This document shows, in pieces, positions 6,402-35,497 of a stretch of 35,497 nucleotides of DNA. The stretch covers positions 1-35,497 of the IMG/VR virus record IMGVR_UViG_3300008020_000017; one strand, given 5' to 3'. The position numbers were made by a program, and so were the translations under genes. Source of the stretch: a virus (Duplodnaviria; Caudoviricetes). Each line of letters starts with the position of its first letter. Position 1 is the stretch's first letter. The notes below the pieces were generated by a model. It searched no databases. It was given only the letters and a program-made list of their open reading frames with translations, and was not told where the DNA came from.

Positions 6402-8739
6402 TCGCCCCGACGAAGCAAACACCACCGGCATCATGGACGGCGAGACCCGGCGAGACGATCCCCGCGACCGTGTCGGCGCGTCCAGCGCCCCCGCCGTGCT
6501 GGCCCGCAAGCCCGACCGCCTCGACACCGAGACCTTCCTTGACCTCCACCGCAACCTGCTGGGTCACTATGTCCGCGAGATCGACCGGCAGGGCGACAAC
6601 CGCCGCCAGATGGCCCGCGACGAGGACTTCTACGACAACGACCCCTATACCGCCGAGGAAAAGGCGATCCTGGCAGCGCGCGGGCAGCTTGCCACCAACT
6701 TCAACGTCATCGCCACCACGCTGAACTGGGTGATCGGCACCGAGCGGCGCGGCCGCACGGATTACAAGATCCTGCCGCGCCGCAAGGAAGGCTCCCGGCA
6801 GGCCGAGCGCAAGTCTCAGCTCATGAAATACCTCTCGGACGCCAACCGCTCCGGGTTCGCCATCTCCAAGGCGTTCGAGGAACAGGTGAAGGCGGGACTG
6901 GGCTGGCTTGAGTCGGGATGGCAGGCCGACGACGAGGGCGAGCCGGTCTATGACCGCGCGGAGCCTTGGCGCAACATCCTGCACGACAGCATGGCGCAGG
7001 AGAACGACCTTTCGGACGCGCGCTATGTCTTCCGCTCCAAATGGATGGACCGCGACCTCGCCCAGGCATACTTCCCCGGCCGTGCCGCCGTGATCCGCCG
7101 CGCCACCTCCGCGACCTACGACTTCGGGGGCGTGTTTGACAGCTACGGCGACGACGCCATGGACAGCGCCGAACAGGAGGCGACGATGCTGGCCTCCCGG
7201 TCCTCCCCCGAGGCGTTCGGCGGCGAGCGCGAACGTGTCCGCATGATCGAGGCGTGGTTCCGCAAGCCCGCGCTGACCCGGATCATGGGGGGCGGCGACT
7301 TCTCCGGCGAAATCTTCGATGAATGGTCCGATGGCCACATGGCCGAGCTGGACAGTGGCCGCGCCGAAATGATCGAGCGCGTCAAGATGCGGACCTATGT
7401 GGGCATCATGACCACCTCCGGGCTCGTGACGGTGATGGAGTCGCCCTACCGACACAACCGCTTCCCGTTCACCCCGCTCTGGTGCTACCGCCGCGGCCGC
7501 GACGGGATGCCCTACGGGATGATCCGCGGCTTGCGCGACCTGCAGACCCACATCAACCGCTCCGCCGCCAAGGCCCAATACATCCTATCGACCAACAAGA
7601 CGATCATGGACAAGGGCGCCGTGGACGATCTCGACCAGTACGAGGAAGAGGCCGCCCGTCCCGACGCCATCATCGTCGTCAATCCGGGCAAGCGGCTCGA
7701 CATGAACGTCGACCGCGACCTTGCCCCTGCGCACCTCGACCTGATGTCGCGCATGATCCAGATGGTGCAGACCCAATCGGGCGTGACCGACGAAAACCTC
7801 GGGCGCAGCACCAACGCGACATCGGGCAAGGCCATCATCGCCCGGCAGGAGCAAGGTTCTCTCGCCACCGCCGCGATCTTCGACAACCTCAAGTTCGCCA
7901 TGCAGGTCCACGGCGAAAAGATGCTCTCGCTGATGGAGCAGTTCTTCAATGAGCGTAAGCAGTTCCGCATCACCAACAGCCGGGGCACCCCCGAGTTCAT
8001 CGACATCAACGACGGCATGCCGGAGAACACGATCACGCTCTCGAAGGCAGACTATGTGATTTCCGAGGACGACTGGAACGCGACCCACCGTCAGGCCCAG
8101 GTCGAAAGCCTGATGAACCTCGTGCGCGAGATCGCCCCCGGTGCCCCGCAAATCCTGATGCTCGTTCTCGACCTGCTGGTGGAAATGATGGACATCCCGT
8201 CCAAGGACGAGGTTGTGCGCCGCATCCGGCAGGCTACGGGGATGAAAGACCCCGACGCCGACCCGAATGAGCCGCCGTCCCCGGAAGAACAGGCGCAGAT
8301 GCAGGCCAAGGCCGAAGAGGCCGCGATGGCGAAGCGCGGCGCCATGGCACAGATCGACAAGACCGAGGCCGAGGCCGCAGAGAAGCGGTCCCGCGCCGCC
8401 AAGGCCGACATCGATGCCGAGAAGCTGATCCAGTCCCTCGCCGGGCAGAACCTCGACACCCAGATCAAGGCGTTCGAAGCCGCGATCCATCTTCTGTCCG
8501 CGCCGCAGGTGGCCGAGGTGGGCGATGCCCTGCTGATCGGCGCCGGATATTCCGCAGCAGCCGCGAACGAGGCGATCATCTTGCAGGACATGGTCGCGCG
8601 CAGCACCAACGAGGCCGTGGCGCAGGCCATTGCCCCGCCGCCACCCCCGGAAGGCCAAATGCCCGGGCCGGAACAAGCGGGGCCCACACCCCCGCAGCAG
8701 CCTATGCCGCCTATGCCGCTCGAAGGGCAGATGCCATGA
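6394..8739 (+). CDS. Portal protein (P22-like)
   Basis: 781 aa, after the terminase. Motifs DEDFYD, FNVIATTLNWVIGTERRGR, SPYRHNRFPFTP, YGMIRGLRDLQTHIN, SGVTDENLG..NATSGKAIIARQEQG; coiled-coil and Pro/Gln-rich C-terminus. Confidence 0.92.
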   Translation: MYDRPDEANTTGIMDGETRRDDPRDRVGASSAPAVLARKPDRLDTETFLDLHRNLLGHYVREIDRQGDNRRQMARDEDFYDNDPYTAEEKAILAARGQLATNFNVIATTLNWVIGTERRGRTDYKILPRRKEGSRQAERKSQLMKYLSDANRSGFAISKAFEEQVKAGLGWLESGWQADDEGEPVYDRAEPWRNILHDSMAQENDLSDARYVFRSKWMDRDLAQAYFPGRAAVIRRATSATYDFGGVFDSYGDDAMDSAEQEATMLASRSSPEAFGGERERVRMIEAWFRKPALTRIMGGGDFSGEIFDEWSDGHMAELDSGRAEMIERVKMRTYVGIMTTSGLVTVMESPYRHNRFPFTPLWCYRRGRDGMPYGMIRGLRDLQTHINRSAAKAQYILSTNKTIMDKGAVDDLDQYEEEAARPDAIIVVNPGKRLDMNVDRDLAPAHLDLMSRMIQMVQTQSGVTDENLGRSTNATSGKAIIARQEQGSLATAAIFDNLKFAMQVHGEKMLSLMEQFFNERKQFRITNSRGTPEFIDINDGMPENTITLSKADYVISEDDWNATHRQAQVESLMNLVREIAPGAPQILMLVLDLLVEMMDIPSKDEVVRRIRQATGMKDPDADPNEPPSPEEQAQMQAKAEEAAMAKRGAMAQIDKTEAEAAEKRSRAAKADIDAEKLIQSLAGQNLDTQIKAFEAAIHLLSAPQVAEVGDALLIGAGYSAAAANEAIILQDMVARSTNEAVAQAIAPPPPPEGQMPGPEQAGPTPPQQPMPPMPLEGQMP

Positions 8740-10006: not shown

Positions 10007-11068
10007 TCATCGCAGTACAGCCCCCCGCAGGCCCATCTCAAACGTCGCCACATCTCCCATAAGATTAATCGTCTTGAAGCGCATCTGGTGGCCTTGAATG
10101 GTCATCTCTTCATCAACGGCACCACCGGTTTGGGGGTGCAGAAGCATTCCTTCTGCCGTGAGGCTTACTGGATCATCGGGCCTCTCCTGACTTCGCAGGT
10201 AGGTGTAGAGCTGATAGAGATACCCGCTTTTCAGGATATGATCTCGGTAATTTGATGAGGTAAAAATAGTGGTGAATTTTGTGTCAATCACGATCCGTCG
10301 CCTTGAGGCGGGGTGGTTCAATTCGATATCGGTCTGCATCCCCGGCAGGATCGCGGCCATCCCCGGAGACGAGCTGTCGACAGGCCATGACAGGCGCTTG
10401 CCCTGCGCAACGCTCCAGCCATTGGGCTGCAATTCAAGGCGTAGGGCATTGCCCACGGCACGTTCAAACAAACGGCGGACGAGGTGATCGTTGACGTTGG
10501 GTAGAGTACCGGTGACGTCGCCCATTTCTTCAGTCGGAATGCTCGTGTCAAACACCATCCCGGAAAGAGCCACCATGAATCGATCAGCGCTTTCATTCCG
10601 GGCAATCTGGTCGCTGGCCAGTTCCGTCCATGACGGTCGCGGGCCAATTACTCCCATACGGTTAAAATCCCCAGACAATTGTCGACATCGATGAGCAACC
10701 AGATCGTCCGACACCCTATTGGCCAGACGGTCCAAGGCTGCCCGCACGAGTCGGTTTCGCGGCGTGTCCATCGTATGTTCTTCGAAACGGCAGGCGATAC
10801 GACCCCGATCCATCAAGCGCCGCGTCGTCGTTTCCAGCATATCTATTCGACCCCGCACCCGCGACAGGGTTGCGGCCTTTGGACGATACCCGCGAGAGAG
10901 GTTTCGGCGCAGACGTTCTTCAACAACATGGGTCAACAATCGCGCTAACAGATCAGGAACATCCCGGGCAGTTTCTACCTGATGTTCAAACCGGTCGCGG
11001 AACTGAACCAAATCAGCCGCGTAAAGGAACAGCAGCCAGATATTTCGAAGGGGTATCGGTTCCGCCAT
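10007..11068 (-). CDS. mcrC: McrC-family nuclease subunit of a Type IV (modification-dependent) restriction system
   Basis: Start MAEPIPLRNIWLLFLYA (cf. E. coli McrC IPVRNIYYMLTYA), coupled to the mcrB stop by TAATG. TDIEL...IVIDTKF (PD-(D/E)xK) and YLYQLYTYL. 353 aa. Confidence 0.9.
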   Translation of the reverse strand: MAEPIPLRNIWLLFLYAADLVQFRDRFEHQVETARDVPDLLARLLTHVVEERLRRNLSRGYRPKAATLSRVRGRIDMLETTTRRLMDRGRIACRFEEHTMDTPRNRLVRAALDRLANRVSDDLVAHRCRQLSGDFNRMGVIGPRPSWTELASDQIARNESADRFMVALSGMVFDTSIPTEEMGDVTGTLPNVNDHLVRRLFERAVGNALRLELQPNGWSVAQGKRLSWPVDSSSPGMAAILPGMQTDIELNHPASRRRIVIDTKFTTIFTSSNYRDHILKSGYLYQLYTYLRSQERPDDPVSLTAEGMLLHPQTGGAVDEEMTIQGHQMRFKTINLMGDVATFEMGLRGAVLR

Positions 11069-12876
11069 TATAAACCTATGCGCAGAGCCTGTGCCGCTTC
11101 CCGGGCACGGTCGGAAGCATCGAACCAGTATTCCTCCAGCAAAGGTGCGATTTCGGTTTCGATCACCTCGGCAAACCATGCGCGTGAATCTAAAATGTCA
11201 TCATCCCCCGGTGTAACGTAAGAATGACCCACCCGAAATTGCGGCCCCAGCGCCCGATCCTGCGCAATTGTGTCATTCAAAGCGGTCATCCGGTCTCGGA
11301 TCAGGGTGATCGAATCTTCTGGAAAATCCCTATCACGGCACCAGTCAGCCCATGCATCATTAAAAAGGGGTTCCAGCGTGACAAAGGCAAACCTGCGGCG
11401 CAGGGCCAGGTCGACCAGCGCAAGTGAGCGGTCGGCGATATTCATCGTGCCAATAATGTAAAGGTTGTCCGGAACATGGACTTTTTCGCCTGGAATTTTC
11501 CGATAAGCGAGTTCCATCGCATCCGCGCGGCTACGTTTGGTGTTTTCCAGCAAGGTCAACATTTCACCAAAGACCTGTGCGGGGTTACCCCGATTGATTT
11601 CTTCGATGATCAGGACATGGGCCAGGTCGGGATGGGCTCGGGCTGCCTCGACAACCTGAAGGAAAATCCCGTCGGTAAGGGTCAACCCATTGCTGGATGG
11701 ACGATAGCCGCGGACGAAATCTTCATAGGACAGCGAGGGATGGAATTGGACCGAGCGGAGTTGATCCGGCAGGTGCGACCGGCGGCCGATCAAGGCCTTT
11801 GCCAGGCGCTTCGCAAGCCATGTTTTCCCTGTGCCAGGTGGACCTTGTAGAATCAAATTCTTCTTGGACGTCAGGCGATCAACAAGGCCCGACAGTGCAT
11901 TACGTTCCAGAAAGCCGCCTTCCGCGATGATATCGTCCACCGTGTAGGGTAGAATTTCCGTCACTGCGGCGTTATCATTTTCTTCCGCATCCTCTGCCTC
12001 GATTATGCTCAGAGGGTCAACCTCGGGGGCGAAACGCTCGGCCCAATATGAATGGCCGAGGAAATATCCGTAGTCCTGATCCGTCCCGTCAAAGGCAAAG
12101 GCCACCAACCGGCGCGCCATGTCATCTTCCTCGACGCGGGCCCGAGCAACGGTTGTCCGGTAGGTGTAGAAGTACCACTCTTTTGGCGGGTCGAGTTCGT
12201 GCCAGTCCACCTCAACAGTCAGACCGTCGCCCCGATTTGCGGTGATCGTCCCTGTGGCCTTGATTCGCATAACACTCGCAGCACGACCCTGATTTTCGAA
12301 GGGGACATCATTCTTTCGGGTGAAGGACGCCTTGATCGCAATACGATCTCCAGGTTTCATCTGCCTGACAAGCTTTGAGAATTTGTCTTCATAACCGTTT
12401 TGCCAGACACCTTCCCGCAAGAACCTTTCAGTCTGGTCGTCCGCTGACCATGATGCGCCGACGAACCAGTAATTGATGCCTTCCGGAACGTTGTCGTCCT
12501 TTGGGGCTTCTTGTTCGTCTTCGTCCCCTGAGAAGTTGATCCGTGCTGTCCGAAAGATTTCGGCAGCCCATTTCGTATTGAGATCAGCTTTCCAGCCTTG
12601 CTCGGTCAGCCCCCAGACACCGCGGCTGGGGGATGTCATCACTCCTGCCTTGAAAAGATAGGACCGAGCAAAATGAACCCGGTTTTCAAATTTTGACCCA
12701 CCATTTTTGTTTGTGAGAGAAAGAAAGCTGTCGGGAATATCATGACGCTTGACCAGTTCGTCAAAAATCTGCCGAGGTCGAGCCTGCCCCCCAAGGTCGC
12801 GCATGATCTCGATGACCGGAGCGAAATAGCTGACGAACTGCGGAACACCGTCAATTTTCTGATCGTGTAGACTCAT
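11068..12876 (-). CDS. mcrB: McrB-family AAA+ GTPase with N-terminal Mrr_N-like winged helix and a second putative DNA-reading domain
   Basis: QGPPGTGKT (Walker A), QFHPSLSYEDFV, IIEEINRGN (Walker B), GTMNIADRS (McrB NxxD signature), ALRRRF. N-terminus PVIEIMRDLGG...FENRVHFARSYLFKAG...RGVWGLTEQG is Mrr_N-like. Start ATG 12876 (MSLHDQ) preferred. Confidence 0.9.
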   Translation of the reverse strand: MSLHDQKIDGVPQFVSYFAPVIEIMRDLGGQARPRQIFDELVKRHDIPDSFLSLTNKNGGSKFENRVHFARSYLFKAGVMTSPSRGVWGLTEQGWKADLNTKWAAEIFRTARINFSGDEDEQEAPKDDNVPEGINYWFVGASWSADDQTERFLREGVWQNGYEDKFSKLVRQMKPGDRIAIKASFTRKNDVPFENQGRAASVMRIKATGTITANRGDGLTVEVDWHELDPPKEWYFYTYRTTVARARVEEDDMARRLVAFAFDGTDQDYGYFLGHSYWAERFAPEVDPLSIIEAEDAEENDNAAVTEILPYTVDDIIAEGGFLERNALSGLVDRLTSKKNLILQGPPGTGKTWLAKRLAKALIGRRSHLPDQLRSVQFHPSLSYEDFVRGYRPSSNGLTLTDGIFLQVVEAARAHPDLAHVLIIEEINRGNPAQVFGEMLTLLENTKRSRADAMELAYRKIPGEKVHVPDNLYIIGTMNIADRSLALVDLALRRRFAFVTLEPLFNDAWADWCRDRDFPEDSITLIRDRMTALNDTIAQDRALGPQFRVGHSYVTPGDDDILDSRAWFAEVIETEIAPLLEEYWFDASDRAREAAQALRIGL

Positions 12877-12904
12877 CACCACTTCCTGCTCCATCTGACC
12901 AAAT

Positions 12905-13067
12905 GAGAATGGCAGCATTGTGGGTGACCGCCAAGGGCGGCAGGTTTGAAGATAGCACCATCGATTGAATTTGCAGCAGCGCCAACTCTGCCTGACCGTT
13001 GTCGGATCGGCGCCTCCATGCGGCCGCACAGCGGCCACTGCGAAGGACGGCTGGGGCACTCGAAGAC
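12905..13067 (+). repeat. Degenerate accessory-flanking repeat copies upstream of mcrB
   Basis: ACTGCGAAGGACGGCTGGGGCACTCGAAGAC (13037-13067) fits the GCAGCGAA.G...GGC.C...GAC pattern. CAAGGGCGG (12932-12940) is the reverse complement of CCGCCCTTG (3265-3273). Confidence 0.4.
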
Positions 13068-13194
13068 TGGCGTCGGCTGAGGTCGGCTCCACCCGCCGCT
13101 GCCCTCAACGCATCTGTAAGGGCTTGGCCGACATCATCCAGTGAGTCCATGGCTTTCCTCGCCAACCTCTAAAACGCAGGATGTAGCCACGCCC

Positions 13195-24186: not shown

Positions 24187-27100
24187 GTGGCCACTACTTT
24201 TGGACGCAATCTCGTCTCCGAAGCTCTCGACCGCGAACGCCAGCGGATCGCCCTTCGCGCCCGGGGCATCCTGCCCGGCGAAAAACCGGCACCGGCCCCC
24301 ACACCCCCACCATCCCCTTCCGGCGCATCGACCGCACCATCGGCCCCCGGCGCGCCGACCGAGGCTCCCGCCACGTCGACCGCCGATCCACGGTCCATGA
24401 TGGAGGACATCGCGCGCACCACCCGCGTCCCGGCGAACCTGCTGGCGTCCATCATCGAGGCAACAGGGTCGACCGACGCCGAGACCGCACAACGCACCGC
24501 AACCGCCGCCGCCCAGCGCATCGCGCCCCTGCTGGCGAGCGGCGTGTCGCCCGAAGACGCCGTGCGGCAGATTTTGGGCGACCGGGCCGACCCCGTCATC
24601 CAGCGCGCCTACGACATAGGCAGCGAATGGACCGGGGGCGCATCAAAGCCCGTCGAGAAGGACGGCACCGTCGCGGGCGATCTGGCGGCGAAGGCCGCGC
24701 AGGGCATAGTCGGCTCCGGTGTCGGCGTCACGCTGCGTGGCGCGGGTGAGCTGGCGGCGGTCACCGCCGACGCCGTCAACGCCCCGCTCAACGCAATTTC
24801 GCGCGCGGTCCTCGGTGAGGATGTGTTCTCCCGCGCCCCGGTGCTGGGCGTCCAGACATCGAAGACCGTGAAGGATTGGGCTGACGAGACCTTTGGCCCG
24901 ATGGTGTCGAAGGGCGGGCAGGACGCGATCAGGAACACCCGGATCAGCGGCAACGCCATCGACCCGTCCACCTGGGACTTCGGCACGGACCCGAGCGCCT
25001 ACGGCATCATCCTGCAAGGTGTCGAGGTGTTCGGCGGCATGCTCCCCGTCGTCGCCGCCGCTCTCCTTACAGGTGGCGCGGGCGCCATCGCTGTCGGCGC
25101 CTCGCAATCGGCGGGCGATCAGGCCATGGCCTCCGACGAAACCCTGACCCGAATGTTCGAGACGAAGGGCAAGGACGGCAAATCCGTGCTTGAAGCCGAG
25201 TCCAGGACGTTCCGCGACTATCTGGCCCGGGGCATGTCCGAGAAGGACGCCTTCGAGCGCACCCGCGCCGACGGCGCCCGCATGGCCGCGATCATCGCCG
25301 CCCCTATCGGCGCCCTGGGCGGCAAGATCACCCAGACCCTCGTTTCCCCCGGCACCAAGATCCTCGCTGGTCGCGGAATCGGCGCCCGCATCGCTGGCCG
25401 CGCCGGGCTGGGCGCCGCCGAAGAGGGCGTTCAGGAGGTGGCGGAGGTGGCCGGTGGCCGGTTCGGCACCAACACCGCGACCGGGACCGACATCGACCTG
25501 ATGGAAAACACCCTTGCCGACTTCGTCCTCGGGGCCTTCGCCGGTGGAGCCATAGGCGCAGGCGGCGGGGCGTTCTCGCGTCGTGAGCAGCCCACTCCCC
25601 TGCCCGCCCCCGCGCCACCCCTCGGTCTGCCCGCCCCAGCGCCGCAACCACCTGCCGGTCCTGACACCGGACCTGTCCCCGCGCCTGCCCCAATGGGTGC
25701 CGCGCCCACACCCCCGGCACCGCCTGCCCCCGCACCGCCGCCCGCCGGTCCCCTCGCTTCCGCCCTTGGATCGGCGCCGGAACCGCTGATGCCTGAGATG
25801 CCCGTCGGCACCCGCATCAGGGTGGACCTTGATCGCGGGGGCTCCATAGACGCGACTTACGAGGGTGAGAACGCCCTCGGGGTTCAAATCCGCGAGCCCG
25901 GCGCCACCGAAACCCTGACGATCCCGCGCGAAGAGATCGAGCTGGGCCTGTCCAGGATCTCGCCCGTCAACACCGATCGGGGTGTAATGACGGGCGACCA
26001 GCTCCGGGCGTATGCAGAGCAGCGCCTTGCCGAGTTCGATGAAAAGCCTGACGTGACGCCCCGAGATGAGGCGTTTGCGCAGTTCATCTTCGACAATATC
26101 GACAATCCCGACGAATTGGCAAAGGCGCTTGGCGTCACGATCAGGGATGAAGGTGATGGCACAGACAGTGGCGGTATGGGACCGGGCGGCCCGGGAAATG
26201 CTGGACAAGGGCCTGCTGACCCCGGCGCAGCACCGGCAGGTGTTCAAGTTCCTGAACCAGCCGGGCCAAACGTCGGTGCCGTCGAGGACACCCCTCACCC
26301 AGGCGCTGAACAAGGTCCACCTGTACGCCCTGCGACCCCTGAACAGCCGGTCGCTGTAACCCCGCCGCCCGCGAAACCGCAGGCGCCCGCCCCCGTCGTC
26401 ACGCCCGAGCCTCTCGATGGAAGCCCGGACCCGGAAATCGTGGAGTTCAAGCGCAAGGGCGCGCGCATGGGCCGCCTCATCGTGGTCGATCACGGCAAGG
26501 ATGGGTTCGAGGTCCGTTCCGATCACAATATCCCGGGCTATTCCAGCGCGTCAGGCAGCATCAATGGGCGGTTCCCGACCCGTGACGCCGCGGTGTCGGC
26601 TGGGATCGCGGACATCCGCGCCCAGGTGGCGGACATCGCCACCGGCAAGAGCGGCAGTACGTCGAACACGACGCGCGCCGACGCCAGACGCATCCTCGCA
26701 TGGCTGGACAGCATCGAGCCGAAGGCCGTCGAGCCTGTCGCGCCTCCCGTCAAGCCTGTGCCGCCGAAGGGCGGAATGAAGCCGCTCACACCCGAGGAAG
26801 GCGAGAAGCTGTTTCTGGACGCGCTGAACGAGGACGAGGCCGCCGACAAGCCTGCTGATGCGCCTGCAAAACCCCAGGAGGCTTCCGTCACCGGCGCCAC
26901 GGACGGCGCCCATGCCCGCTGGGCGCGCGACGTCGCTGCGAACCTGCCCGATGGCTGGACCGTCACTGTCGAGAAAGGCCCGGTCCCCTACGAGCGCATC
27001 GAGTTTTCCACCTTCACGGCGCCGAACGGGTACACGACCCAGCACAACGAGACATCCTACGCAACGACCTATGGCAAGGACCGTGTTGCCGCCGCCGCAG

Positions 27101-30100
27101 ACATGGTGAAGCGTTCCGAGGCGCCGACGCCACCGGCCAAGCCGCGCGTCACTCCGCCGCCGAAGCCCGCCGACAAACCCGCCGCGCCGGTGCGGCGGGC
27201 CGAAGAGGTGGACGAGTTCAAGCGCAAGGGCAAGACTCTGGTGCGCATCGTCACCTTCGAGTCCGACGACGGAAGGTTCGGCGCGGACCACGATTATGAA
27301 ATTCCGGGCTTTGCCGGCGGCGCTGGCCCGGTCTCCGGTCAAACGACCCGCGAGGCCGCAAAGCTGGCCGCAGCGCGGCGGGTCCGCACCAGCGTCCAGG
27401 ACATCGCGGACGGAAAATCCGGCTCCGCCGCCTCCCCCGCCAATATCGCCGATGCCAGGCGCATCCTTGCGTGGCTGGATCAGGCCGTTCCGGCATCGAA
27501 ACCCGCCGATCCCGCCCCTGCGCCCGCACCGGAGCCGACCCGCGCCCCGATCTCCACCTTTGAAATGGCCAAACTGGCGCGTCCGGTCCCGCTGGAACGC
27601 TACGACGAACTGATCGCGGAGGTTGCCGGCGAACCGGAGGCCCGGTATTCCAAGCTGACCGACACCCGGAAGATCGCTTTCGAGGATGCAATTCGCGCCG
27701 AGCTGGCAAAACCGGCCGTCGCGCCGGAACCGGAGCCGGTCAAGCCTGCCGACACATCTTTCGATGCCTTCGAGTTCACCCGCGAGCTGACCCTTGCAGC
27801 CGGAAAGACCACCTACCAGGGCACCACCTACCTCATCGAAGGCGGCTCTCAGGCCCGAGGGTTTTTCGTGTCGGTCTCTCGCCCCGGCGAACAGACGCGC
27901 GTGCTGATTGCGGGCAACAGAACGCGGTGGCGCCGCGAAGACGCCATAGAAAACGCCCTGCGGGACGCTTTTCCCGACACCCGGCCCGATGGCGGCCCCG
28001 ATGCCGGGGCGAATGTTGACACGGCGGCCGCCGAGGCTGACCCCGATCCGACCCCGGGACAGGCCGAGGCGGGCAATTACAAGCACGGCCACGTCACCGT
28101 TCAGGGCATGGACATCGCCATCGAGACGGCGAAAGACGCAATGCGCAAGGGCACCGATGCCGACGGCAAGGAATGGTCGACCAGGATGCCCGCCCACTAT
28201 GGCCGGTTCAAGGGCACCGTGGGCGCCGACGGCGATCAGGTGGACGTCTACATCGGCGGAGAGCCGGAGTCCGATTTCGCCATGGTCGTGGACCAGATCG
28301 ACCTCAAGACCGGCAAGTTCGATGAACACAAGGTCATCATCGGCGCGAAGGACAAGGCCGAGGCCATCCGCGTCTACAAGAAGAGCTTTTCGGACGGCAA
28401 GGGCGGCGCCCGCATCGGCGGTACTACCGAAATGACCATCGCCAAGCTCAAGGAACTGCTGGTCCTGCCGATGGACAAGCCGCTTGTCCAAGCGCCTATC
28501 GACCAGGACGGCGGCAAACCGGGTGACAAGCCGGGAGCCAGGATCGACGACTTCGGCGCCAGGATCGGCCGCACCCGAAAGGAAGCGGCCAGGAAGCTCG
28601 CGGCGTCGCTCGCCACCGAGATCGACCCGAACGGGATGACCCTCTCCGAAGCCTTCCCGATCCCTGACTACGTCGCTCTGGCTGCGGATGGTGTCTCGAC
28701 GGAGGCCATGACCCTCATCGCCATGATCCGCGCCGCGGTCCCGCGCAAGGCCGGTGCCCGGCGCTGGGGATGGAACGACAAGGTGCAGGACGCCCGCAGC
28801 TTGGTGCGTGACGTTCTGGACGGCGGCATGAGCCGCAATGATTACCTCGCCGACCTGTCGACATACCGGGGCTCCGACACGATCCGCCTGGGCAACAACC
28901 CCGGCGACAATTTCCGCGTCCTGATGCAGATGGAGCCGGGCGACCTTCACACCGCGTCCAGTGAGTTCGAGGTCGCGTCGATCACCACCCTCAAGACGGA
29001 CCTCGGCGAAGTCCTGTTCGACGGCGAGTCCAAGTGGCGTGAACGCTTTACCATCCAGAAAGCCGGGAAGTACCGTGGCCGATCCGGCCTGACCACCACC
29101 AACAGCGCCGACACCGCCACCGAAGAGGCCGACGTCGCCACCCTGGCCGCCGAAATGAAGCGCATGGTCAACGCCCTGCGGGAGTACCGCAGCGGGCGCA
29201 AGAGCGGCGACGGCGAGATAAAGTTCCAACTGCGCACATGGAAGGGCGGTGGCGCGGCGATCTTCGTTGTGAAACCGCGCATCCTGCAACTGACGCCCAG
29301 GTTCCCGACGTCGACAACGGCCCGGGCTTATCTGGAAGAGAACCGCGAAGAGCTGGAAGACAAGGCCCGCCTTCTGCGATCCGGCCCGAAGGAACGCCGC
29401 GAGTCCAACAGCCCCCGCAAGGGTCCGTCGTGGCGCACCGGCAATGCCACAGAGGCCATGTTCATCGACGGCCTGGGGTTCCGGGGCGTGACGTTCGGCA
29501 AATCGCTCACCCAGAAAGAGCGTCAGGCCCGGATGAACGACACCTATGACGCCATGATGGACCTTGCGGGCATCCTCGGTGTGCCGGTGAAGACCCTCTC
29601 GCTCAACGGCGCGCTCGGGATCGGCTTCGGCACCCACGGCACCGGCGGCAAGGGCCATTGGGCCGCCGTCTACATGCAATCGTCGGACAGCACACAGGAT
29701 CAGGTCATCGCCCTGACCCGCGCCGGTGGCGCCGGCACTCTCGCACATGAGTGGTGGCATGCCGTCGACAACTTCCTTGCCCGCAAGGACGCCGCGGCTG
29801 GCGGCGCCCCCGCCACGATTTCCGGCGACAAGGCGTCCCGGCGCACCGAGTTCATGAGCGATCGCTTGCAGGGCGCGTCCAGGCTCGCGCCCGAAACCGC
29901 CAAGGCGTTCGAGAGCCTGCGCACCGCGCTCGAAAAGAGCGACTGGAAGAAGCGGATGGATCGCTTTGACCACTTCAAGGGCAAACCCTATTACGGCACG
30001 GTCATCGAGCTTGCGGCGCGCGGCTTCGAGCGCATGGTCATCGACCAGCTCGCATATCGCGGCATGTCCAGCGACTTCCTTTCCAACATCAACGAGGTCG

Positions 30101-33100
30101 ACGGTGCGTACCTCACGCCCGTCGAGTTCAGCCGCACCGGCATCGGCGCCGCCTACGAAGCCGCGCTGGCCGCCATTTCCGCCGAGCTGAACGTCAAGGG
30201 CGAGACCGGGCCGGTCCTGCCCGACATCATTGCGGACCGTGTCCCGGGCGAACCCGCCGTGGGCGACACATGGGACAGCCCCGCAGGGCAGCGGGAAATC
30301 ATCGGCTATCTTCACGACATCAAGCCCCACCTCCAACAGTTCACCGTCACCGACCCCGCGACGGGTCGCACGGTCGACATGAACCCCGTCGAGCTTTTCC
30401 AGGCGCAGATCGCAGACGCCTACGGCATGACGCCCCTCGGGCAGTTGGAGCAGGCTGAGAAGGTCGCGGCTGTGGAAGCCGGCGAGACCGCGAAGAAGGC
30501 GCAGGAAGTGCGCGATGCGGCGCTTGCAGAGAAGCGCGCCGGTCATCAGGCCCAGAAGGCGCGCGCCATTGCCGCGATTGACGACTGGATCAACAAGACA
30601 GGCAAGAACCCCGGCGTGGTCAAGGATCGCCTCGGCAAGGAGTTCAGCAAAACCGAGGTTGGCAGGTTCACGGTCGGGCAGTTCATCGTGGTGTTGGTCG
30701 AGCGGGGCGATGTCGTCCGGACCGGCACGGTCGACGGCAAGAAATCCATGGGCGGGTTCAGCGAGGGTCAGCTCACCAAGCTGGGCCTTGAGTTCGCCAC
30801 CTTCTACGAGGCCCGCTGGAAGGCCGCAGAAGCCCAGGCCGAGGCCACGAAAGCGGCGTCGGACAAGGCCCGCGACGAGTTCGGCTTCCGCGCCGACAAC
30901 CCGGGTGGCGACTGGCTGATCGAAAAGCTGCTGTCCGCTGACACCTATATGAAAGACCCATCTTTTGCAGACACCGCCACCGGCAACGGCCTGAGCGGCG
31001 CGACCACGGGCTTTTTCAGCAAGACCCTGTTCCTTCCGTCATCCATCCTTGCGACCCTGCCGGGCGCCAATGGCGAGAGCCCCGCGCCGGGCCAGCCGAA
31101 GTTTGACGGACTCATGGCCGATGTCGAGCGCGACGGAGCGTTCAAGGCTGACCAGAGCGGCAACGCCGTGGTTATCGGCGTGAACCACACGGGCGCGGCG
31201 TTCGTTCTGGAGGGCAACAACCGGATCGCCGTCGCGCGCAAGCTGGGCGTGAAGACCCTGCGGGCAGAGGTGCGGTACTGGAACGGGGGCGAGGCCAACA
31301 CGGGGCCGATGACCCCCGCCAAGGTCGCGGCCATGGCGAGCCTCGAAAGCCCGGGCGACATGCCCGTCGCGCCAGCCGAACCGAATGCCCCCGACGGCGG
31401 CATGAAGCCGATGAGCGCCGAGGACGGCGAGAAGCTGTTCCTCGACATGCTGGATCAGGACGAGGCGGGCGCCACCCCTGTCGACACCCCCGGCCCGGTC
31501 GCGGGAGAGCCACGCCAGATCACCGACGCCTTCCTCGCGGAGTTCCGCACGGGCCGTTCGTTCCGCACCATCGGCCAGGCCCGCAAGCTCGCGGGCGAGA
31601 CGCTGGGCCGCGGCATCGGCGAGGGCGAATACTTCATGGTCGAAGAGGCCGTGGAGCTTGCCGTCGTGCTGCGCGCCCGCGAAATCGTCGCCGAGGATCG
31701 CGCCCGCGACGGAGGGCCGGACCCGGTCGCCGTCTATGCCGAGTTGATGGAGCTTTACAACGCACAGCCGATCCTTGGGGAGCGGACCCCCGACAAGCTG
31801 CGGTTCCAGGCATTCTCGACCCCGGCGCCGCTGGCCTATCTGGTGTCGCGCCTCGCGGGCATCGGCCCCGGCACCCGCGTCCTTGAGCCGACCGCGGGCA
31901 ACGGCATGCTGGCCCTTGATGCGACCCCGGCCAACGTGCAGGCCAATGAGCTGCAAGATAGCCGCACCGCCCAGATCGCCACCTCCCTGCCGGGCGCACA
32001 GCAGACGCAGATGGATGCCCTGGACCTGAGCCCGGAACCCTTCGACGTCCTCATCACCAACCCGCCCTTCGGCAAGCTCACCGATCAGGCGACACAGAAG
32101 CGTAAGACCTGGGACATGGGCGTGACATCCACCAAGGAAATCGACCATGCAATCGCATGGAAGATGCTCGGGCACATGCCGGATGACGGGCGCGCGGTCC
32201 TGATCCTTGGTGGCATCAAGAAGCAACTGATCGGGGATGCGCGCAAGAAGGCGTATCAGGAGCGCGCGAAGACCACATTCTTCAAGCAGCTCTACGACAC
32301 CTACAATGTCGTCGACCATTTCACGGTCGCGGGCGACCTCTATTCCCGGCAGGGCGCGGCGTGGCCGGTGGACGTTATCGTCATCGACGGTCGCAGTCGG
32401 TCATCTCGGGAATATCCGATGAAGACCCCACCGGATGTGCTATCGTCGTGGGTAGATTTGGGAAGGAAACTTGACGATGCGCCTGATGTGGACACCACCG
32501 AGCGTGGACCCTCTGTTGGGGACGGTCTTCTCAACGGAACGGACCTTGATGTCCGAGGCGCAGTACCTGGGGCGGCTGGAAGCCCGGCTGGAACGAATGG
32601 TGGAGAAGGCGACGCGGGCGGAAGTCCGGGAGCTGGAAGAAAAGCTGTGGGGCGAGGGCCTGATGGCGATGGACGTGTCTCCGTCACGGGCGGCCGAAAT
32701 GCTGGTTCAGGAGTGCGAGGCTCTGACGCTGGCGCTGGCGTCGCTGGACAAGGTGGCGTGGCCGGTGCCGGAGAAGGCTTGGATAAAGACGGACCCGGAA
32801 ATGGCGGAGGTGAGTCTGGAGGACTTCGTGATGCACCTGTAAGCCCGCCGCCGACACCCGGCGACAAGGCTGCCGACGGCATGGGCGACATCCTCAAGGG
32901 GATTCGCGCCGCGCTGAACTCCATCGATCCCAACAAGCTGAACTCCGGCCCGGCGTTCCTCGAAGACGTCTACAAGGCGCTGAAACCCCACTTCATCGCT
33001 GGCATCCGCAAGTTCGCCGACGCGGCCATTGACATCGTCGGCATGGTCAAGGCCATGATCGCGGGGCTCAAAGCTGCCGGGATGACGGCGGATGAACAGC

Positions 33101-35497
33101 GCACCATAGCGCCCTATGCGGGCCGGTTCATCGCCGATGTGACCGAGGGCAGGATCGACCCGTTCTCGGACGCCGCGCCAGAACAGGCCCCCGCCCCGGC
33201 ACGCCGCATCAACACCGAGACCGAAACCGAATATCAGGTTTATTACGAGCCGAAATCGAAGGCGCTGTTCCAGGTCGGAACCCTCGTTCCGCGCGCCATG
33301 CAGCAGGCCATGGGCCGGGCGCTCGACAGGATCGAGGCCCAGCACGGCGACATCGACAGTTACGTGGCCCGCGAGCTTGGGTACACCTATGATGAGGTCG
33401 TCGGGACACCTGAAAAGGAAGGCTATTTCTCCGCCGAGCAGGTCGACGCTCTGGCCATGGCGATCCTGAACGTCAGCCAGGGCAAGGGCTTCATCATCGG
33501 CGACCAGACCGGCGTGGGCAAGGGCCGCTTCGTCGCCGCCATGCTGCGCTACGGCGCCAGATTGGGGCGCATCCCGGTATTCGTGACCCAGAAACCAGGC
33601 CTTTACGCTGACATGATCCGCGATCTGCGCGACATCGGCATGCCCGAGGCGCAGGCACAGGTGATTGCGACGAACGCAGGGCTCGATCCGGTGCCGATCA
33701 ACGACGCCGATGACCTGTTCACCGGCGCCAAGCCGAAGGCGCTCAGGGAGCTGTTCACGGCCCTGCGCAACGGCAAGATGCCCGAAGGCAAGACCTATCT
33801 GTTTACAACCTACGACCAGATGGTGACGCAGAAAGGCGAATGGCCCGAACGTGCCAACGCGCTGATGGCCGCCGCCCCAAACGCCATGCTCATCATGGAC
33901 GAAAGCCACACGGCCGGCGGGCTCGCAAGCGGTCGGACTCAGGTGCGTGAAAAGGGCGCGCCCCCGGAGAACCGGGCGCAGTTTTTCCGCGATCTCGTCG
34001 GTCTGGCCTCCGGCACCGTCTTTTCGTCGGCCACCTATGCCAAGAACCCGAGCGTGATGTCGCTTTATGCCTCGACCAACCTCAACCTTGCGGTCGACGA
34101 CATCGAGAACCTGGCCTCAGCGATCACCAAGGGCGGTGTGCCCCTGTTGCAGGTGGTGGCAAACCAGCTCGTCGCCGACGGTCAGTATGTGCGCCGCGAA
34201 AAATCCTTCGACGGCATAGACTTCCTGCCCGCCGAACTGACCGCCCAGCGCGAGCATGCCATCGAGGTCGCCGCCATGGTCGGCGAAATGGCCCGGTTCG
34301 ACCGCGACACCATGGAGCCAATCCGTGAGGCCGTGAAGGACAGGCTGGGCGAGGAAGGGTTCATCGGCGTGGGCGACAGCGCCGTCGGGGTCAAGTCCAC
34401 CGCCAGCGCCGAGTTTTCCTCCACCGTCCACAACCTCGTGAGCCAGTTCCTTCTGGCGGTGAAGCTGGATGGTGCAGCAGACCTTGCCATCGAAGCCTGG
34501 AAGCGCGGCGAAAAACCCGTCCTGACCCTGATGAACGTGAACACGTCCATCATCGCCGAATACCTCTCGGCCAATGGCATCACCGAAGGCGACGATGTCT
34601 CCATCCCGTTTGCGGCCATCATGGACCGCTACCTTGAGCGCCTGCGGCAAATCACCGTCGAGACCACATCCGGCCAAAAGATCAAGCACCGGCTGTCCGA
34701 CGCCGATCTCGGAACCGCCGCCGTGACCGAGTTCGCCGCGCTGAGCGCCCGCATCGTCAACATGCCCCTCAAGGGGCTGACCGGATCGCCCGTGGACGCC
34801 ATTCTCGACAAGCTCCGCGACGTCGGCATGAAGGTTGACGAGATCACCGGGCGTCAGTCCGTGATCGACCACGGCACGGTGGCGCGGCGCATCAGCAGCC
34901 CTTCCGACAACAAGCGCCGCATGAACGAGTTCAACAATGGCGACCTTGACGCGCTGATCCTCTCCGCCTCCGGCTCCACCGGCTTCTCGCTCCATGCCAC
35001 CGGCAAGGGGCGGAACGACGGCAGGAAGCGCCGGATGATCGTCTTGCAGCCGCATGCCGACATCAACGTGTTCATGCAGACCCTCGGGCGCATCAACCGC
35101 ACCGGCCAGATTGTGCTGCCCGCCTACAGCCTCGCCTTCTCCGACCTTGCGATCGAGCGTCGTGCCGCCGCGATCCTGATGAAGAAGCTTGCCTCCCTCA
35201 ACGCCAACACCACCGCGAGCAAGAAGGGCGCCACGACCCTGACGGAGGTTGTCGATTTCGTGAACGAGGTGGGCGACGAGGTTGTTGCGGCCTACCTGCG
35301 CGAAGATCCGTTCCTCGTCATGCGCCTCGGGCTGACGGTGCCCGGTACGTCGAACGACCCAGAAAAGCGCGCGCCCGGCCTTGAGGACTTCGCCAAGAAG
35401 GCCACGGGCCGCTTCGTGTATCTGCACCCCGACGAGGTGACGCAGCATTTCGAGTCCATCGAGGCGGCCTATATCGACAGGATCGCCCAGCTCGAAC
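24187..35497 (+). CDS. Giant DarB-like polyvalent virion protein (>3770 aa, 3' end outside the window): InPase, LPD1, ParB-like, N6-adenine MTase, strawberry-notch SF2 helicase
   Basis: Absent from the ORF track because it has no stop. GTG 24187 follows an AAAGGA RBS and an in-frame TGA at 24148. Motifs: AEAGNYKHGH..HYGRFKGTVGADGDQVDVYIG..FDEHKV (about 28048-28460); RIDDFG, GFRGVTFG, LAHEWWH (29746), ELAARGFE; VLEGNNRIAVARKLG (31210); AFSTP, VLEPTAGNG (31879), NPPF (32059); GDQTGVGKG (33499), DESH (33898), STGFSLHA, QTLGRINRTGQ (35077). Confidence 0.92.
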   Translation, partial: MATTFGRNLVSEALDRERQRIALRARGILPGEKPAPAPTPPPSPSGASTAPSAPGAPTEAPATSTADPRSMMEDIARTTRVPANLLASIIEATGSTDAETAQRTATAAAQRIAPLLASGVSPEDAVRQILGDRADPVIQRAYDIGSEWTGGASKPVEKDGTVAGDLAAKAAQGIVGSGVGVTLRGAGELAAVTADAVNAPLNAISRAVLGEDVFSRAPVLGVQTSKTVKDWADETFGPMVSKGGQDAIRNTRISGNAIDPSTWDFGTDPSAYGIILQGVEVFGGMLPVVAAALLTGGAGAIAVGASQSAGDQAMASDETLTRMFETKGKDGKSVLEAESRTFRDYLARGMSEKDAFERTRADGARMAAIIAAPIGALGGKITQTLVSPGTKILAGRGIGARIAGRAGLGAAEEGVQEVAEVAGGRFGTNTATGTDIDLMENTLADFVLGAFAGGAIGAGGGAFSRREQPTPLPAPAPPLGLPAPAPQPPAGPDTGPVPAPAPMGAAPTPPAPPAPAPPPAGPLASALGSAPEPLMPEMPVGTRIRVDLDRGGSIDATYEGENALGVQIREPGATETLTIPREEIELGLSRISPVNTDRGVMTGDQLRAYAEQRLAEFDEKPDVTPRDEAFAQFIFDNIDNPDELAKALGVTIRDEGDGTDSGGMGPGGPGNAGQGPADPGAAPAGVQVPEPAGPNVGAVEDTPHPGAEQGPPVRPATPEQPVAVTPPPAKPQAPAPVVTPEPLDGSPDPEIVEFKRKGARMGRLIVVDHGKDGFEVRSDHNIPGYSSASGSINGRFPTRDAAVSAGIADIRAQVADIATGKSGSTSNTTRADARRILAWLDSIEPKAVEPVAPPVKPVPPKGGMKPLTPEEGEKLFLDALNEDEAADKPADAPAKPQEASVTGATDGAHARWARDVAANLPDGWTVTVEKGPVPYERIEFSTFTAPNGYTTQHNETSYATTYGKDRVAAAADMVKRSEAPTPPAKPRVTPPPKPADKPAAPVRRAEEVDEFKRKGKTLVRIVTFESDDGRFGADHDYEIPGFAGGAGPVSGQTTREAAKLAAARRVRTSVQDIADGKSGSAASPANIADARRILAWLDQAVPASKPADPAPAPAPEPTRAPISTFEMAKLARPVPLERYDELIAEVAGEPEARYSKLTDTRKIAFEDAIRAELAKPAVAPEPEPVKPADTSFDAFEFTRELTLAAGKTTYQGTTYLIEGGSQARGFFVSVSRPGEQTRVLIAGNRTRWRREDAIENALRDAFPDTRPDGGPDAGANVDTAAAEADPDPTPGQAEAGNYKHGHVTVQGMDIAIETAKDAMRKGTDADGKEWSTRMPAHYGRFKGTVGADGDQVDVYIGGEPESDFAMVVDQIDLKTGKFDEHKVIIGAKDKAEAIRVYKKSFSDGKGGARIGGTTEMTIAKLKELLVLPMDKPLVQAPIDQDGGKPGDKPGARIDDFGARIGRTRKEAARKLAASLATEIDPNGMTLSEAFPIPDYVALAADGVSTEAMTLIAMIRAAVPRKAGARRWGWNDKVQDARSLVRDVLDGGMSRNDYLADLSTYRGSDTIRLGNNPGDNFRVLMQMEPGDLHTASSEFEVASITTLKTDLGEVLFDGESKWRERFTIQKAGKYRGRSGLTTTNSADTATEEADVATLAAEMKRMVNALREYRSGRKSGDGEIKFQLRTWKGGGAAIFVVKPRILQLTPRFPTSTTARAYLEENREELEDKARLLRSGPKERRESNSPRKGPSWRTGNATEAMFIDGLGFRGVTFGKSLTQKERQARMNDTYDAMMDLAGILGVPVKTLSLNGALGIGFGTHGTGGKGHWAAVYMQSSDSTQDQVIALTRAGGAGTLAHEWWHAVDNFLARKDAAAGGAPATISGDKASRRTEFMSDRLQGASRLAPETAKAFESLRTALEKSDWKKRMDRFDHFKGKPYYGTVIELAARGFERMVIDQLAYRGMSSDFLSNINEVDGAYLTPVEFSRTGIGAAYEAALAAISAELNVKGETGPVLPDIIADRVPGEPAVGDTWDSPAGQREIIGYLHDIKPHLQQFTVTDPATGRTVDMNPVELFQAQIADAYGMTPLGQLEQAEKVAAVEAGETAKKAQEVRDAALAEKRAGHQAQKARAIAAIDDWINKTGKNPGVVKDRLGKEFSKTEVGRFTVGQFIVVLVERGDVVRTGTVDGKKSMGGFSEGQLTKLGLEFATFYEARWKAAEAQAEATKAASDKARDEFGFRADNPGGDWLIEKLLSADTYMKDPSFADTATGNGLSGATTGFFSKTLFLPSSILATLPGANGESPAPGQPKFDGLMADVERDGAFKADQSGNAVVIGVNHTGAAFVLEGNNRIAVARKLGVKTLRAEVRYWNGGEANTGPMTPAKVAAMASLESPGDMPVAPAEPNAPDGGMKPMSAEDGEKLFLDMLDQDEAGATPVDTPGPVAGEPRQITDAFLAEFRTGRSFRTIGQARKLAGETLGRGIGEGEYFMVEEAVELAVVLRAREIVAEDRARDGGPDPVAVYAELMELYNAQPILGERTPDKLRFQAFSTPAPLAYLVSRLAGIGPGTRVLEPTAGNGMLALDATPANVQANELQDSRTAQIATSLPGAQQTQMDALDLSPEPFDVLITNPPFGKLTDQATQKRKTWDMGVTSTKEIDHAIAWKMLGHMPDDGRAVLILGGIKKQLIGDARKKAYQERAKTTFFKQLYDTYNVVDHFTVAGDLYSRQGAAWPVDVIVIDGRSRSSREYPMKTPPDVLSSWVDLGRKLDDAPDVDTTERGPSVGDGLLNGTDLDVRGAVPGAAGSPAGTNGGEGDAGGSPGAGRKAVGRGPDGDGRVSVTGGRNAGSGVRGSDAGAGVAGQGGVAGAGEGLDKDGPGNGGGESGGLRDAPVSPPPTPGDKAADGMGDILKGIRAALNSIDPNKLNSGPAFLEDVYKALKPHFIAGIRKFADAAIDIVGMVKAMIAGLKAAGMTADEQRTIAPYAGRFIADVTEGRIDPFSDAAPEQAPAPARRINTETETEYQVYYEPKSKALFQVGTLVPRAMQQAMGRALDRIEAQHGDIDSYVARELGYTYDEVVGTPEKEGYFSAEQVDALAMAILNVSQGKGFIIGDQTGVGKGRFVAAMLRYGARLGRIPVFVTQKPGLYADMIRDLRDIGMPEAQAQVIATNAGLDPVPINDADDLFTGAKPKALRELFTALRNGKMPEGKTYLFTTYDQMVTQKGEWPERANALMAAAPNAMLIMDESHTAGGLASGRTQVREKGAPPENRAQFFRDLVGLASGTVFSSATYAKNPSVMSLYASTNLNLAVDDIENLASAITKGGVPLLQVVANQLVADGQYVRREKSFDGIDFLPAELTAQREHAIEVAAMVGEMARFDRDTMEPIREAVKDRLGEEGFIGVGDSAVGVKSTASAEFSSTVHNLVSQFLLAVKLDGAADLAIEAWKRGEKPVLTLMNVNTSIIAEYLSANGITEGDDVSIPFAAIMDRYLERLRQITVETTSGQKIKHRLSDADLGTAAVTEFAALSARIVNMPLKGLTGSPVDAILDKLRDVGMKVDEITGRQSVIDHGTVARRISSPSDNKRRMNEFNNGDLDALILSASGSTGFSLHATGKGRNDGRKRRMIVLQPHADINVFMQTLGRINRTGQIVLPAYSLAFSDLAIERRAAAILMKKLASLNANTTASKKGATTLTEVVDFVNEVGDEVVAAYLREDPFLVMRLGLTVPGTSNDPEKRAPGLEDFAKKATGRFVYLHPDEVTQHFESIEAAYIDRIAQLE
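26156..26359 (+). CDS. Putative nested gene (+1 frame) inside the giant protein, 67 aa, unknown function
   Basis: MAQTVAVWDRAAREMLDKGLLTPAQHRQVFKFLNQPG...LTQALNKVHLYALRPLNSRSL has protein-like composition and a purine-rich upstream region (AGGGATGAAGGTG). Host-frame codon bias collapses over this interval. Alternative ATG 26147. Confidence 0.55.
   Translation: MAQTVAVWDRAAREMLDKGLLTPAQHRQVFKFLNQPGQTSVPSRTPLTQALNKVHLYALRPLNSRSL
26443..27480 (+). repeat. Internal duplication of an 89-aa domain in the giant protein
   Basis: 26443-26709 and 27214-27480 both read EFKRKG...IPG(Y/F)...TR(D/E)AA...V.DIA.GKSGS...ADARRILAWLD. Confidence 0.85.
32477..32842 (+). CDS. Putative nested gene (+1 frame) in the MTase-helicase linker of the giant protein, 121 aa, unknown function
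   Basis: GGAAGGA RBS 9 nt before ATG 32477. MRLMWTPPSVDPLLGTVFSTERTLMSEAQYLGRLEARLERMVEKATRAEVRELEEKLWGEG...EVSLEDFVMHL is amphipathic-helical. The host frame here is low-complexity Gly-rich with many A/T-ending codons. Confidence 0.65.
   Translation: MRLMWTPPSVDPLLGTVFSTERTLMSEAQYLGRLEARLERMVEKATRAEVRELEEKLWGEGLMAMDVSPSRAAEMLVQECEALTLALASLDKVAWPVPEKAWIKTDPEMAEVSLEDFVMHL

Follow-up and report, generated by a model that had tools for sequence, protein, structure and literature searches.

Within the window, by which we mean the whole 35,497-nucleotide virus record IMGVR_UViG_3300008020_000017 (Caudoviricetes), a single giant gene encodes a polyvalent protein in which a DNA methyltransferase (MTase) module is joined by a glycine-rich linker to a helicase. 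The +1 frame of this linker contains an open reading frame (ORF) of 121 amino acids (aa), and the data presented here leave very little doubt that this ORF is a real protein-coding gene. An open frame in such a place could arise by chance. Given the amino acids and codon usage of the host frame (that of the giant gene), the +1 frame was open in 19% of resamplings of the window (P = 0.19), and the median of this probability across the 96 related loci described below was 0.29. An open +1 frame alone is therefore weak evidence, and the case for the nested gene rests on its conserved start, its ribosome site, its protein and the frame-specific selection that acts on it.

The nested gene had been proposed in an earlier note made from the letters of the window, and the ORF, its length and ATG, and the Shine-Dalgarno (SD)-like motif with its spacing (Table 1) were all reproduced. 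A recount of host codons ending in A or T gave identical values, 57 of 100 at positions 32521-32820 and 2 of 20 at 32881-32940, and the low complexity ascribed to the host stretch is evident in the span over the nested gene, which is 32% glycine and contains no aromatic residues. Outside the two nested spans of the giant gene (the second is described below), no 100-codon segment of the host frame has more than 32 A/T-ending codons, and the mean is 16. Over 32477-32842, G or C ends 101 of 121 codons in the nested frame and 51 of 121 in the host frame. Contigs from three public runs show zero differences over the covered parts of the nested ORF, which is therefore not an assembly error.

Searches for related loci with single sequences gave no matches, and alignments of the nested sequences varied too much for use in pattern scans. 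Loci (cited below by L numbers) were fetched with a profile of the host helicase, taking the best 80 of 450 viral and the best 80 of 475 genome loci, which together with the window make 161. An in-frame MTase lies upstream in 136 of these, 107 remained after dereplication, and 99 of the latter have a linker of at least 90 aa; the 25 loci lacking an in-frame MTase and 29 near-duplicates were thus left out before anything was counted. In 96 of the 99 long linkers there is a +1 ORF of at least 80 aa that runs from near the last aromatic anchor of the MTase and ends before the helicase, while the same test applied to the +2 frame identified 2 of 99. All 96 ORFs are fully nested, lying inside an open host ORF. 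Their starts are strikingly uniform: 86 begin with ATG, which in 78 is accompanied by an SD-like motif, and the start of 80 falls at codon +8 or +9 after the anchor. When the anchor was slid through the conserved domains of the same 96 loci, the expected numbers were 4.0 ORFs and 0.2 with ATG and SD. The comparison of homologues foreseen in the earlier note revealed an open +1 frame in these 96 loci, with a start and SD-like motif conserved in most.

In 76 loci, chosen for an ATG at +8 or +9, the host dipeptides that span the nested ATG are of 13 kinds, every one of which spells ATG when read in +1. Of these loci, 69 have an SD-like motif versus 31.7 expected from the host amino acids. At the other end, the nested stop lies no more than 15 codons from the helicase in 66 of the 96 loci, so that the glycine-rich linker is essentially coextensive with the nested gene. 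The nested products have a median length of 131 aa (88-233) and are net acidic in 92 of 96 loci, with a median net charge of -0.06 per residue. The loci without a nested ORF, 3 with long and 8 with short linkers, all belong to Bacteroidota, in which 0 of 11 dereplicated loci have one. Among the genome loci the nested gene occurs in seven named phyla, and it is carried by both phages and conjugative elements.

Frame-specific selection was assessed in 24 pairs of loci aligned as nucleotide sequences, two of which duplicate one another and many of which come from a single clade. In the overlap, the differences at host codon positions 1, 2 and 3 number 956, 578 and 487, and in the adjacent MTase 324, 221 and 1047. 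Since host position 1 is position 3 of the nested frame, it is informative that position 1 has more differences than position 3 in all 24 overlaps and in none of the 24 MTases. Within the overlap, the pooled ratio of nonsynonymous to synonymous substitution rates (dN/dS) is 0.38 for the nested and 1.41 for the host frame, and the MTase has a ratio of 0.13; the value of 1.41 reflects released constraint and not positive selection. Together with the conserved start and SD-like motif, these ratios bear out the proposal that the linker is shaped by selection on a second, nested gene. They do not sustain the direction of origin that the term "overprinted" implies, since the constrained frame is the nested one, which could be the older. 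In a tree of the helicases the rows that bear a nested gene make up one side of a branch whose support is weak (61), which is compatible with a single origin, and the data fit both a gene overprinted on an old linker and a small gene captured by read-through. The supposition that there is no second gene, and that the frame is open simply because the disordered linker is rich in glycine, can appeal to the chance openness noted above. It is contradicted by the dN/dS values of the two frames, and the conserved ATG and SD, the conserved W, P, L and R residues and the confident predicted fold described below speak against it as well, so that we regard it as scarcely credible.

How, then, is the nested frame read? 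A +1 stop lies directly upstream of the nested start in 29 of the 96 loci and within 1-8 codons of it in 75, which favors independent initiation over a frameshift fusion. No internal sigma-70-like promoter or terminator was found, and the nested gene is therefore likely to be translated from the mRNA of the giant gene; judged from the sequence, initiation at its own ribosome site is the likely route. RNA structure across the nested start gave no signal (z 0.06). A programmed frameshift into the +1 frame could instead cut the giant protein short so that it ends with the nested domain, or a restart could yield a free helicase. An SD-like run just upstream, as is present here, can stimulate frameshifting, and a host-frame ATG shares bases with the nested stop in the Gloeobacter morelensis plasmid pGMOR1. 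Against these possibilities, a +1 stop closely precedes the nested start in most loci, and a host-frame ATG near the nested stop is present in just 3 of 96, so that a coupled restart of the helicase was rejected and the whole alternative is very improbable.

The nested protein defines a family. A phmmer search with the 121-aa product, as the earlier note had suggested, retrieved 14 homologues at 30-44% identity, not counting the query itself and P0134, a 1426-aa repeat match that was dropped. Across 74 long forms, four residues of the family motif (W5-x-P7 ... L34-x-x-R37 in the window) are nearly invariant. Another 24 short forms of 88-112 aa lack the WxP segment and are homologous to the long forms with a probability of 93%. 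The AlphaFold2 (AF2) model of the window protein has a predicted local distance difference test score (pLDDT) of 92 and a predicted template modeling score (pTM) of 0.85, and is mostly helical, predicting that the protein folds into an acidic globular domain. None of the 74 members matches any Pfam family, including TnpV (PF14198), at E 0.01; searches of PHROG, NCBIfam and PADLOC returned single marginal rows, no PADLOC family matching more than 1 of 74 members at the same cut-off; and the best match in a sequence search of the PDB had an E of 0.68. Foldseek found no match in the PDB or BFVD at E 0.001, although such negatives do not make the fold new. A likeness to pyrin domains (VIA best Z 3.8, root-mean-square deviation 2.8 over 59 residues) was read as a common helical arrangement and set aside, as were DinB-like matches in the ESM Atlas, whose scores of 0.81-0.83 fall within the range reached by shuffles. 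The DNA-mimic antirestriction proteins Ocr and ArdA carry a very high negative charge. The nested family is moderately acidic, and Ocr and ArdA are not among the rows of the fold search, although a fold of their kind is still conceivable.

The earlier note had also stated that standard gene callers discard such ORFs, and for the most part this is in accord with the databases: each of the 46 homologues found there lacks a name or is labeled "hypothetical", and none comes from a contig longer than 10.4 kb, a pattern that fits with callers picking up the gene chiefly where its host gene is incomplete. An instructive case is pGMOR1 (L163, 2432-2881), for which RefSeq lists the nested gene as WP_230844304.1 and begins the helicase downstream of it. 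Despite this truncation the host frame has no interruption from 1417 on, so the nested gene explains at least one truncated RefSeq entry. Plasmid pAQ6 of the laboratory strain Synechococcus PCC 7002 (L164, in which the nested ORF ends at 2704) and a Thalassospira plasmid carry the nested gene without annotation, with the reservation that the PLSDB gene table is incomplete.

The host gene lies in a podophage-like genome, downstream of genes for terminase, a P22-like portal, capsid and an SU10 adaptor. Its InPase, LPD5, LPD1, AAA_34 and Helicase_C_4 domains all exceed the Pfam cut-offs, and the match to N6_Mtase is weak. Modeled alone, the MTase module has an AF2 pLDDT of 96, and its top Foldseek matches are type I HsdM and M.TaqI-like MTases. 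The last helix of the module overlaps the ribosome site and start of the nested gene. A gamma-class N6 MTase with TP and NPP(Y/F) motifs followed by a superfamily 2 (SF2) helicase, together with InPase and LPD domains in a neighborhood of virion genes, identifies the gene by its sequence as a polyvalent-protein methylase-helicase dyad of a Strawberry-notch variant. The archetype of such dyads is P1 DarB, for which packaging in the virion, delivery with the DNA and antirestriction are described in PMC5512222. By analogy, the giant protein of the window may also be packaged and delivered with the DNA to counter restriction. Among named homologues, the nearest belong to Roseovarius, Rhodovulum and related genera. 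The insert of about 120 aa in the 3' part of the linker (Table 1) is present in a subset of homologues. Elsewhere in the window, a McrBC-like pair (Mrr_N with AAA_5, and McrC; 10007-13092, minus strand) of lower GC is situated between the portal region and the capsid gene, and a pentapeptide-repeat protein gene (1730-3022, plus strand) lies in a low-GC patch (39% at 2001-2500) upstream of the terminase genes.

Table 1. Features of the giant gene and its nested reading frames, in window coordinates.
Feature	Position	Strand	Remarks
Giant polyvalent protein gene	24187..35496	+	3770 aa, open at the 3' end of the window (3770+ aa)
Second nested +1 ORF	26156..26359	+	67 aa; AGGGA at 26143-26147, 8-nt spacing; alternative starts 26147, 26153
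Host MTase module, aa 2445-2765	31519..32481	+	STP and NPPF motifs (alignment)
+1-frame TAG stop	32453..32455	+	8 codons upstream of nested ATG
SD-like GGAAGGA	32461..32467	+	ends 9 nt upstream of nested ATG
Host linker, aa 2764-3006	32476..33204	+	Gly/Ala/Asp-rich part of the same extent as the nested gene, then insert of ~120 aa
Nested +1 gene	32477..32842	+	121 aa, ATG start, acidic (net -9), predicted mostly helical
Strawberry-notch-type SF2 helicase/translocase (AAA_34, Helicase_C_4)	33205..35496	+	putative partner of the nested protein

The distribution of the nested gene bears on its role. A profile of the nested family matched 12 times in 802 genomes. Ten of these matches are nested in an intact MTase-helicase ORF (two being centre genomes that were already known), and the other two were rejected as marginal chance matches to PspA and G6PD; no stand-alone nested gene outside an MTase-helicase linker was found in these genomes. 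This weakens the suggestion, made in the earlier note, of a separately injected anti-defence factor. Among the cyanobacterial loci, three of the six scanned adjoin type IV coupling proteins (the scan took in 38 of the 68 flanking ORFs); the host proteins are of about 2000 aa, and one of those scanned has a Prim-Pol fusion. Retention of the nested gene on conjugative elements implies that its role is not specific to virions, and the purely late, virion-related function first envisaged is therefore too narrow. At another locus (L118, 20067-21434), evenly spaced repeats in the translation are probably a CRISPR-like array beside the element.

Comparison of the three neighboring modules points to the helicase. 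MTase and helicase identities are discordant in 14 pairs of loci, and in 13 of these the nested protein is closer to the helicase, as it is in all 5 of the disjoint pairs; L064 and L066, for example, share 69% identity in the MTase, 99% in the nested protein and 100% in the helicase. The partial correlations with the nested protein, calculated from 525 non-independent pairs, are 0.59 and 0.36 for two parts of the helicase and 0.25 for the MTase. Within the clade L046-L077, the MTase has often been exchanged (about 69% identity) among genes whose helicases are 88-100% identical, which suggests specificity swapping.

Based on this linkage, the nested protein may well be a partner of the helicase half, an interpretation that we regard as evenly balanced, and a plausible, somewhat less secure proposal is that it is a cognate chaperone or brake of this half that stays in the producer. 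Both proteins would be made from a single message in the producing cell, where the nested protein would bind the helicase half and hold this ATP-driven DNA translocase in a folded or inactive state until the giant protein has been loaded for delivery, by virion ejection in phages and by conjugation in plasmids. The giant enzyme would then act on the incoming DNA in the new cell, and nesting would keep partner and target joined through recombination. Several observations weigh against this proposal. The discordant pairs, most of them from a single clade, are not independent of one another, and there are smaller counter-trends in L062/L072, L053/L060 and L116/L119. Frequent swapping of the MTase to change specificity, or a crossover hotspot at its conserved end, could produce the same linkage without any binding. 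Only 2 of 307 conserved host columns show a change that matches the short form of the nested protein. Five distant proteobacterial homologues (L162, L167-L170) have no nested gene, and these, together with the Bacteroidota loci, demonstrate that the enzyme family can exist without it. Finally, the evidence separates none of the roles of chaperone, inhibitor and activating subunit.

Two observations on the loci without a family member may be recorded here. In several Bacteroidota loci (within L135-L159) the MTase and the Strawberry-notch helicase are encoded by separate genes, and the genes that intervene vary, one being C5-methylase-like and one DnaJ-like. In gp3 of the cultured gut Bacteroides phage BS-TP4 (L161, 3743-4102), a 119-aa unannotated +1 ORF fills the equivalent linker. 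It was rejected as a homologue of the family (hidden Markov model E 0.06, hhalign probability 3%), and these weak scores make it equivalent in position only.

Of the other roles that might be assigned to the nested protein, that of an obligatory or activating subunit, traveling with the methylase-helicase and supplying for instance a missing specificity or coupling domain, deserves the most attention, although it is rather unlikely. The nested gene begins exactly at the end of the MTase fold and is not found outside the methylase-helicase linker, both as expected of a subunit. There is also a precedent in M.EcoHK31I, a C5 MTase, whose beta chain is encoded wholly in another frame of alpha, is needed for activity and supplies motif IX (PMC2836561). 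The likeness to that enzyme lies in an MTase gene that contains a second polypeptide in another frame. In the present case, however, the N6 MTase fold is predicted to be complete, folding confidently alone and matching whole HsdM/TaqI-like catalytic domains, and the nested gene is located downstream in the linker and tracks the helicase. A split MTase, in which the nested chain is the missing catalytic part, was rejected because of this complete predicted fold, its matches and its STP and NPPF motifs; a separate specificity domain is possible. A net acidic charge, which characterizes 92 of the 96 loci, is unusual for a DNA-recognition domain. Further, nested proteins that are 93-99% identical are paired with MTases that are just about 69% identical, and fused MTase-helicase homologues without a nested gene exist.

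The remaining two alternatives dissociate the nested protein from the helicase. As an independent anti-defence or host-modulating factor, for instance a DNA mimic, it would use a permissive spacer for coding space and co-expression. It is in fact small and acidic with a distinct predicted fold, and since giant genes hold several unrelated nested ORFs, their spacers do appear permissive. This alternative is nevertheless improbable: the gene keeps the same place in seven phyla and in two types of element, no stand-alone copy was found, the charge is modest, the PADLOC search was essentially empty and the nested gene co-segregates with the helicase. The idea that the nested protein restrains the methylase instead of the helicase draws on the overlap of the nested start with the last MTase helix and on the non-zero partial correlation with the MTase. 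Recombination, however, often parts the MTase from the nested gene and rarely the nested gene from the helicase, and this makes restraint of the methylase still harder to accept.

The helicase-partner proposal has parallels in known systems, as well as differences from them. P1 DarB is likewise a giant N6-MTase/SF2-helicase with a small helper, Ulx, a protein of 17 kDa in P1 that "aids DarB localization" (PMC9024508; for DarB, PMC5512222). In P1, ulx is a neighboring gene and is not nested, and the helicase of the window is of the Strawberry-notch type. P1 Ulx was not matched by three profiles of the nested family. For fully nested genes, comparison may be made with the spanins Rz and Rz1, whose products act together. 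There one phage gene is wholly embedded in another (PMC9144972), but these are membrane lysis proteins and the host gene is short, whereas the nested protein described here is predicted to be soluble and acidic and its host gene exceeds 11 kb. In Escherichia coli, GndA, the product of an out-of-frame ORF inside gnd, acts on the product of the primary ORF (10.64898/2026.10.22.760973). GndA is a membrane microprotein encoded inside a conserved enzyme domain (same source), unlike the predicted globular family of 90-230 aa considered here, for which constraint is displaced from the host frame. Nested partner genes and a small DarB helper are thus already known, and what appears to be undescribed, judging from sequence and the literature covered, is the nested gene of the methylase-helicases and its protein family. 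No description of it was found in a survey whose scope excluded the original Bcep22 and P1 Dar papers and the supplement of PMC5512222; the words "overlap" and "linker" are absent from the main text of PMC5512222.

The nested gene of the linker is not the only one in the giant gene. A second nested +1 ORF (Table 1) lies under the other dip in GC3, the proportion of codons ending in G or C, which numbers 60 of 67 in this nested frame and 30 of 67 in the host frame. Of 16 loci checked, L006, L032 and L085 have similar ORFs at a similar place, and leave-one-out profiles did not recover homology of the window ORF to those of L006 and L032. A codon-usage scan of dereplicated hosts of at least 1500 aa yielded 36 SD-led nested ORFs, including this second one of the window, all in the +1 frame and none in +2, the empty +2 frame being the only gauge of false positives. 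The 35 others, of 50-124 aa, are found in relatives L003-L126, and some recur, such as a Lys/Ala-rich ORF in L014 and L097. The arrangement of "built-in nested partner genes" put forward in the earlier note gains support from these ORFs.

Nested ORFs are also present in an SNF2-type DarB-like gene, gp75 of the cultured phage Bcep22 (NC_005262.3, L172), which contains unannotated +1 ORFs at 8338-8661 and 6559-6723. The first encodes 107 aa, is preceded by AAGGAGG and is upstream of the MTase; it is unrelated to the nested family of the window, and a faint match to TnpV (E 0.045) is below the cut-off. It is matched in 41 Burkholderia and Ralstonia phage records, and all 30 of the 30 listed matches fall under the giant gene or an unnamed coding sequence. 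In P1 darB no nested ORF passed the scan in the 2177 codons examined. We tentatively suggest that DarB-like giant genes may be cryptic polycistrons, in which many low-complexity linkers would be the read-through by-products of +1 genes for chaperones or brakes of the neighboring modules. If this is true, annotation lacks an entire layer of cognate regulators that act on delivered anti-restriction enzymes.

As a whole, these results have implications beyond the window. Long, conserved, fully nested genes have rarely been documented in bacteria and phages, and the one described here spans seven phyla and shows clearer selection than the host frame in which it lies. The "disordered linkers" of polyvalent proteins should accordingly be read differently. 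The role proposed for the nested protein would provide a testable answer to the question of how DarB-like methylase-helicases might stay folded or silent in the producer before delivery.

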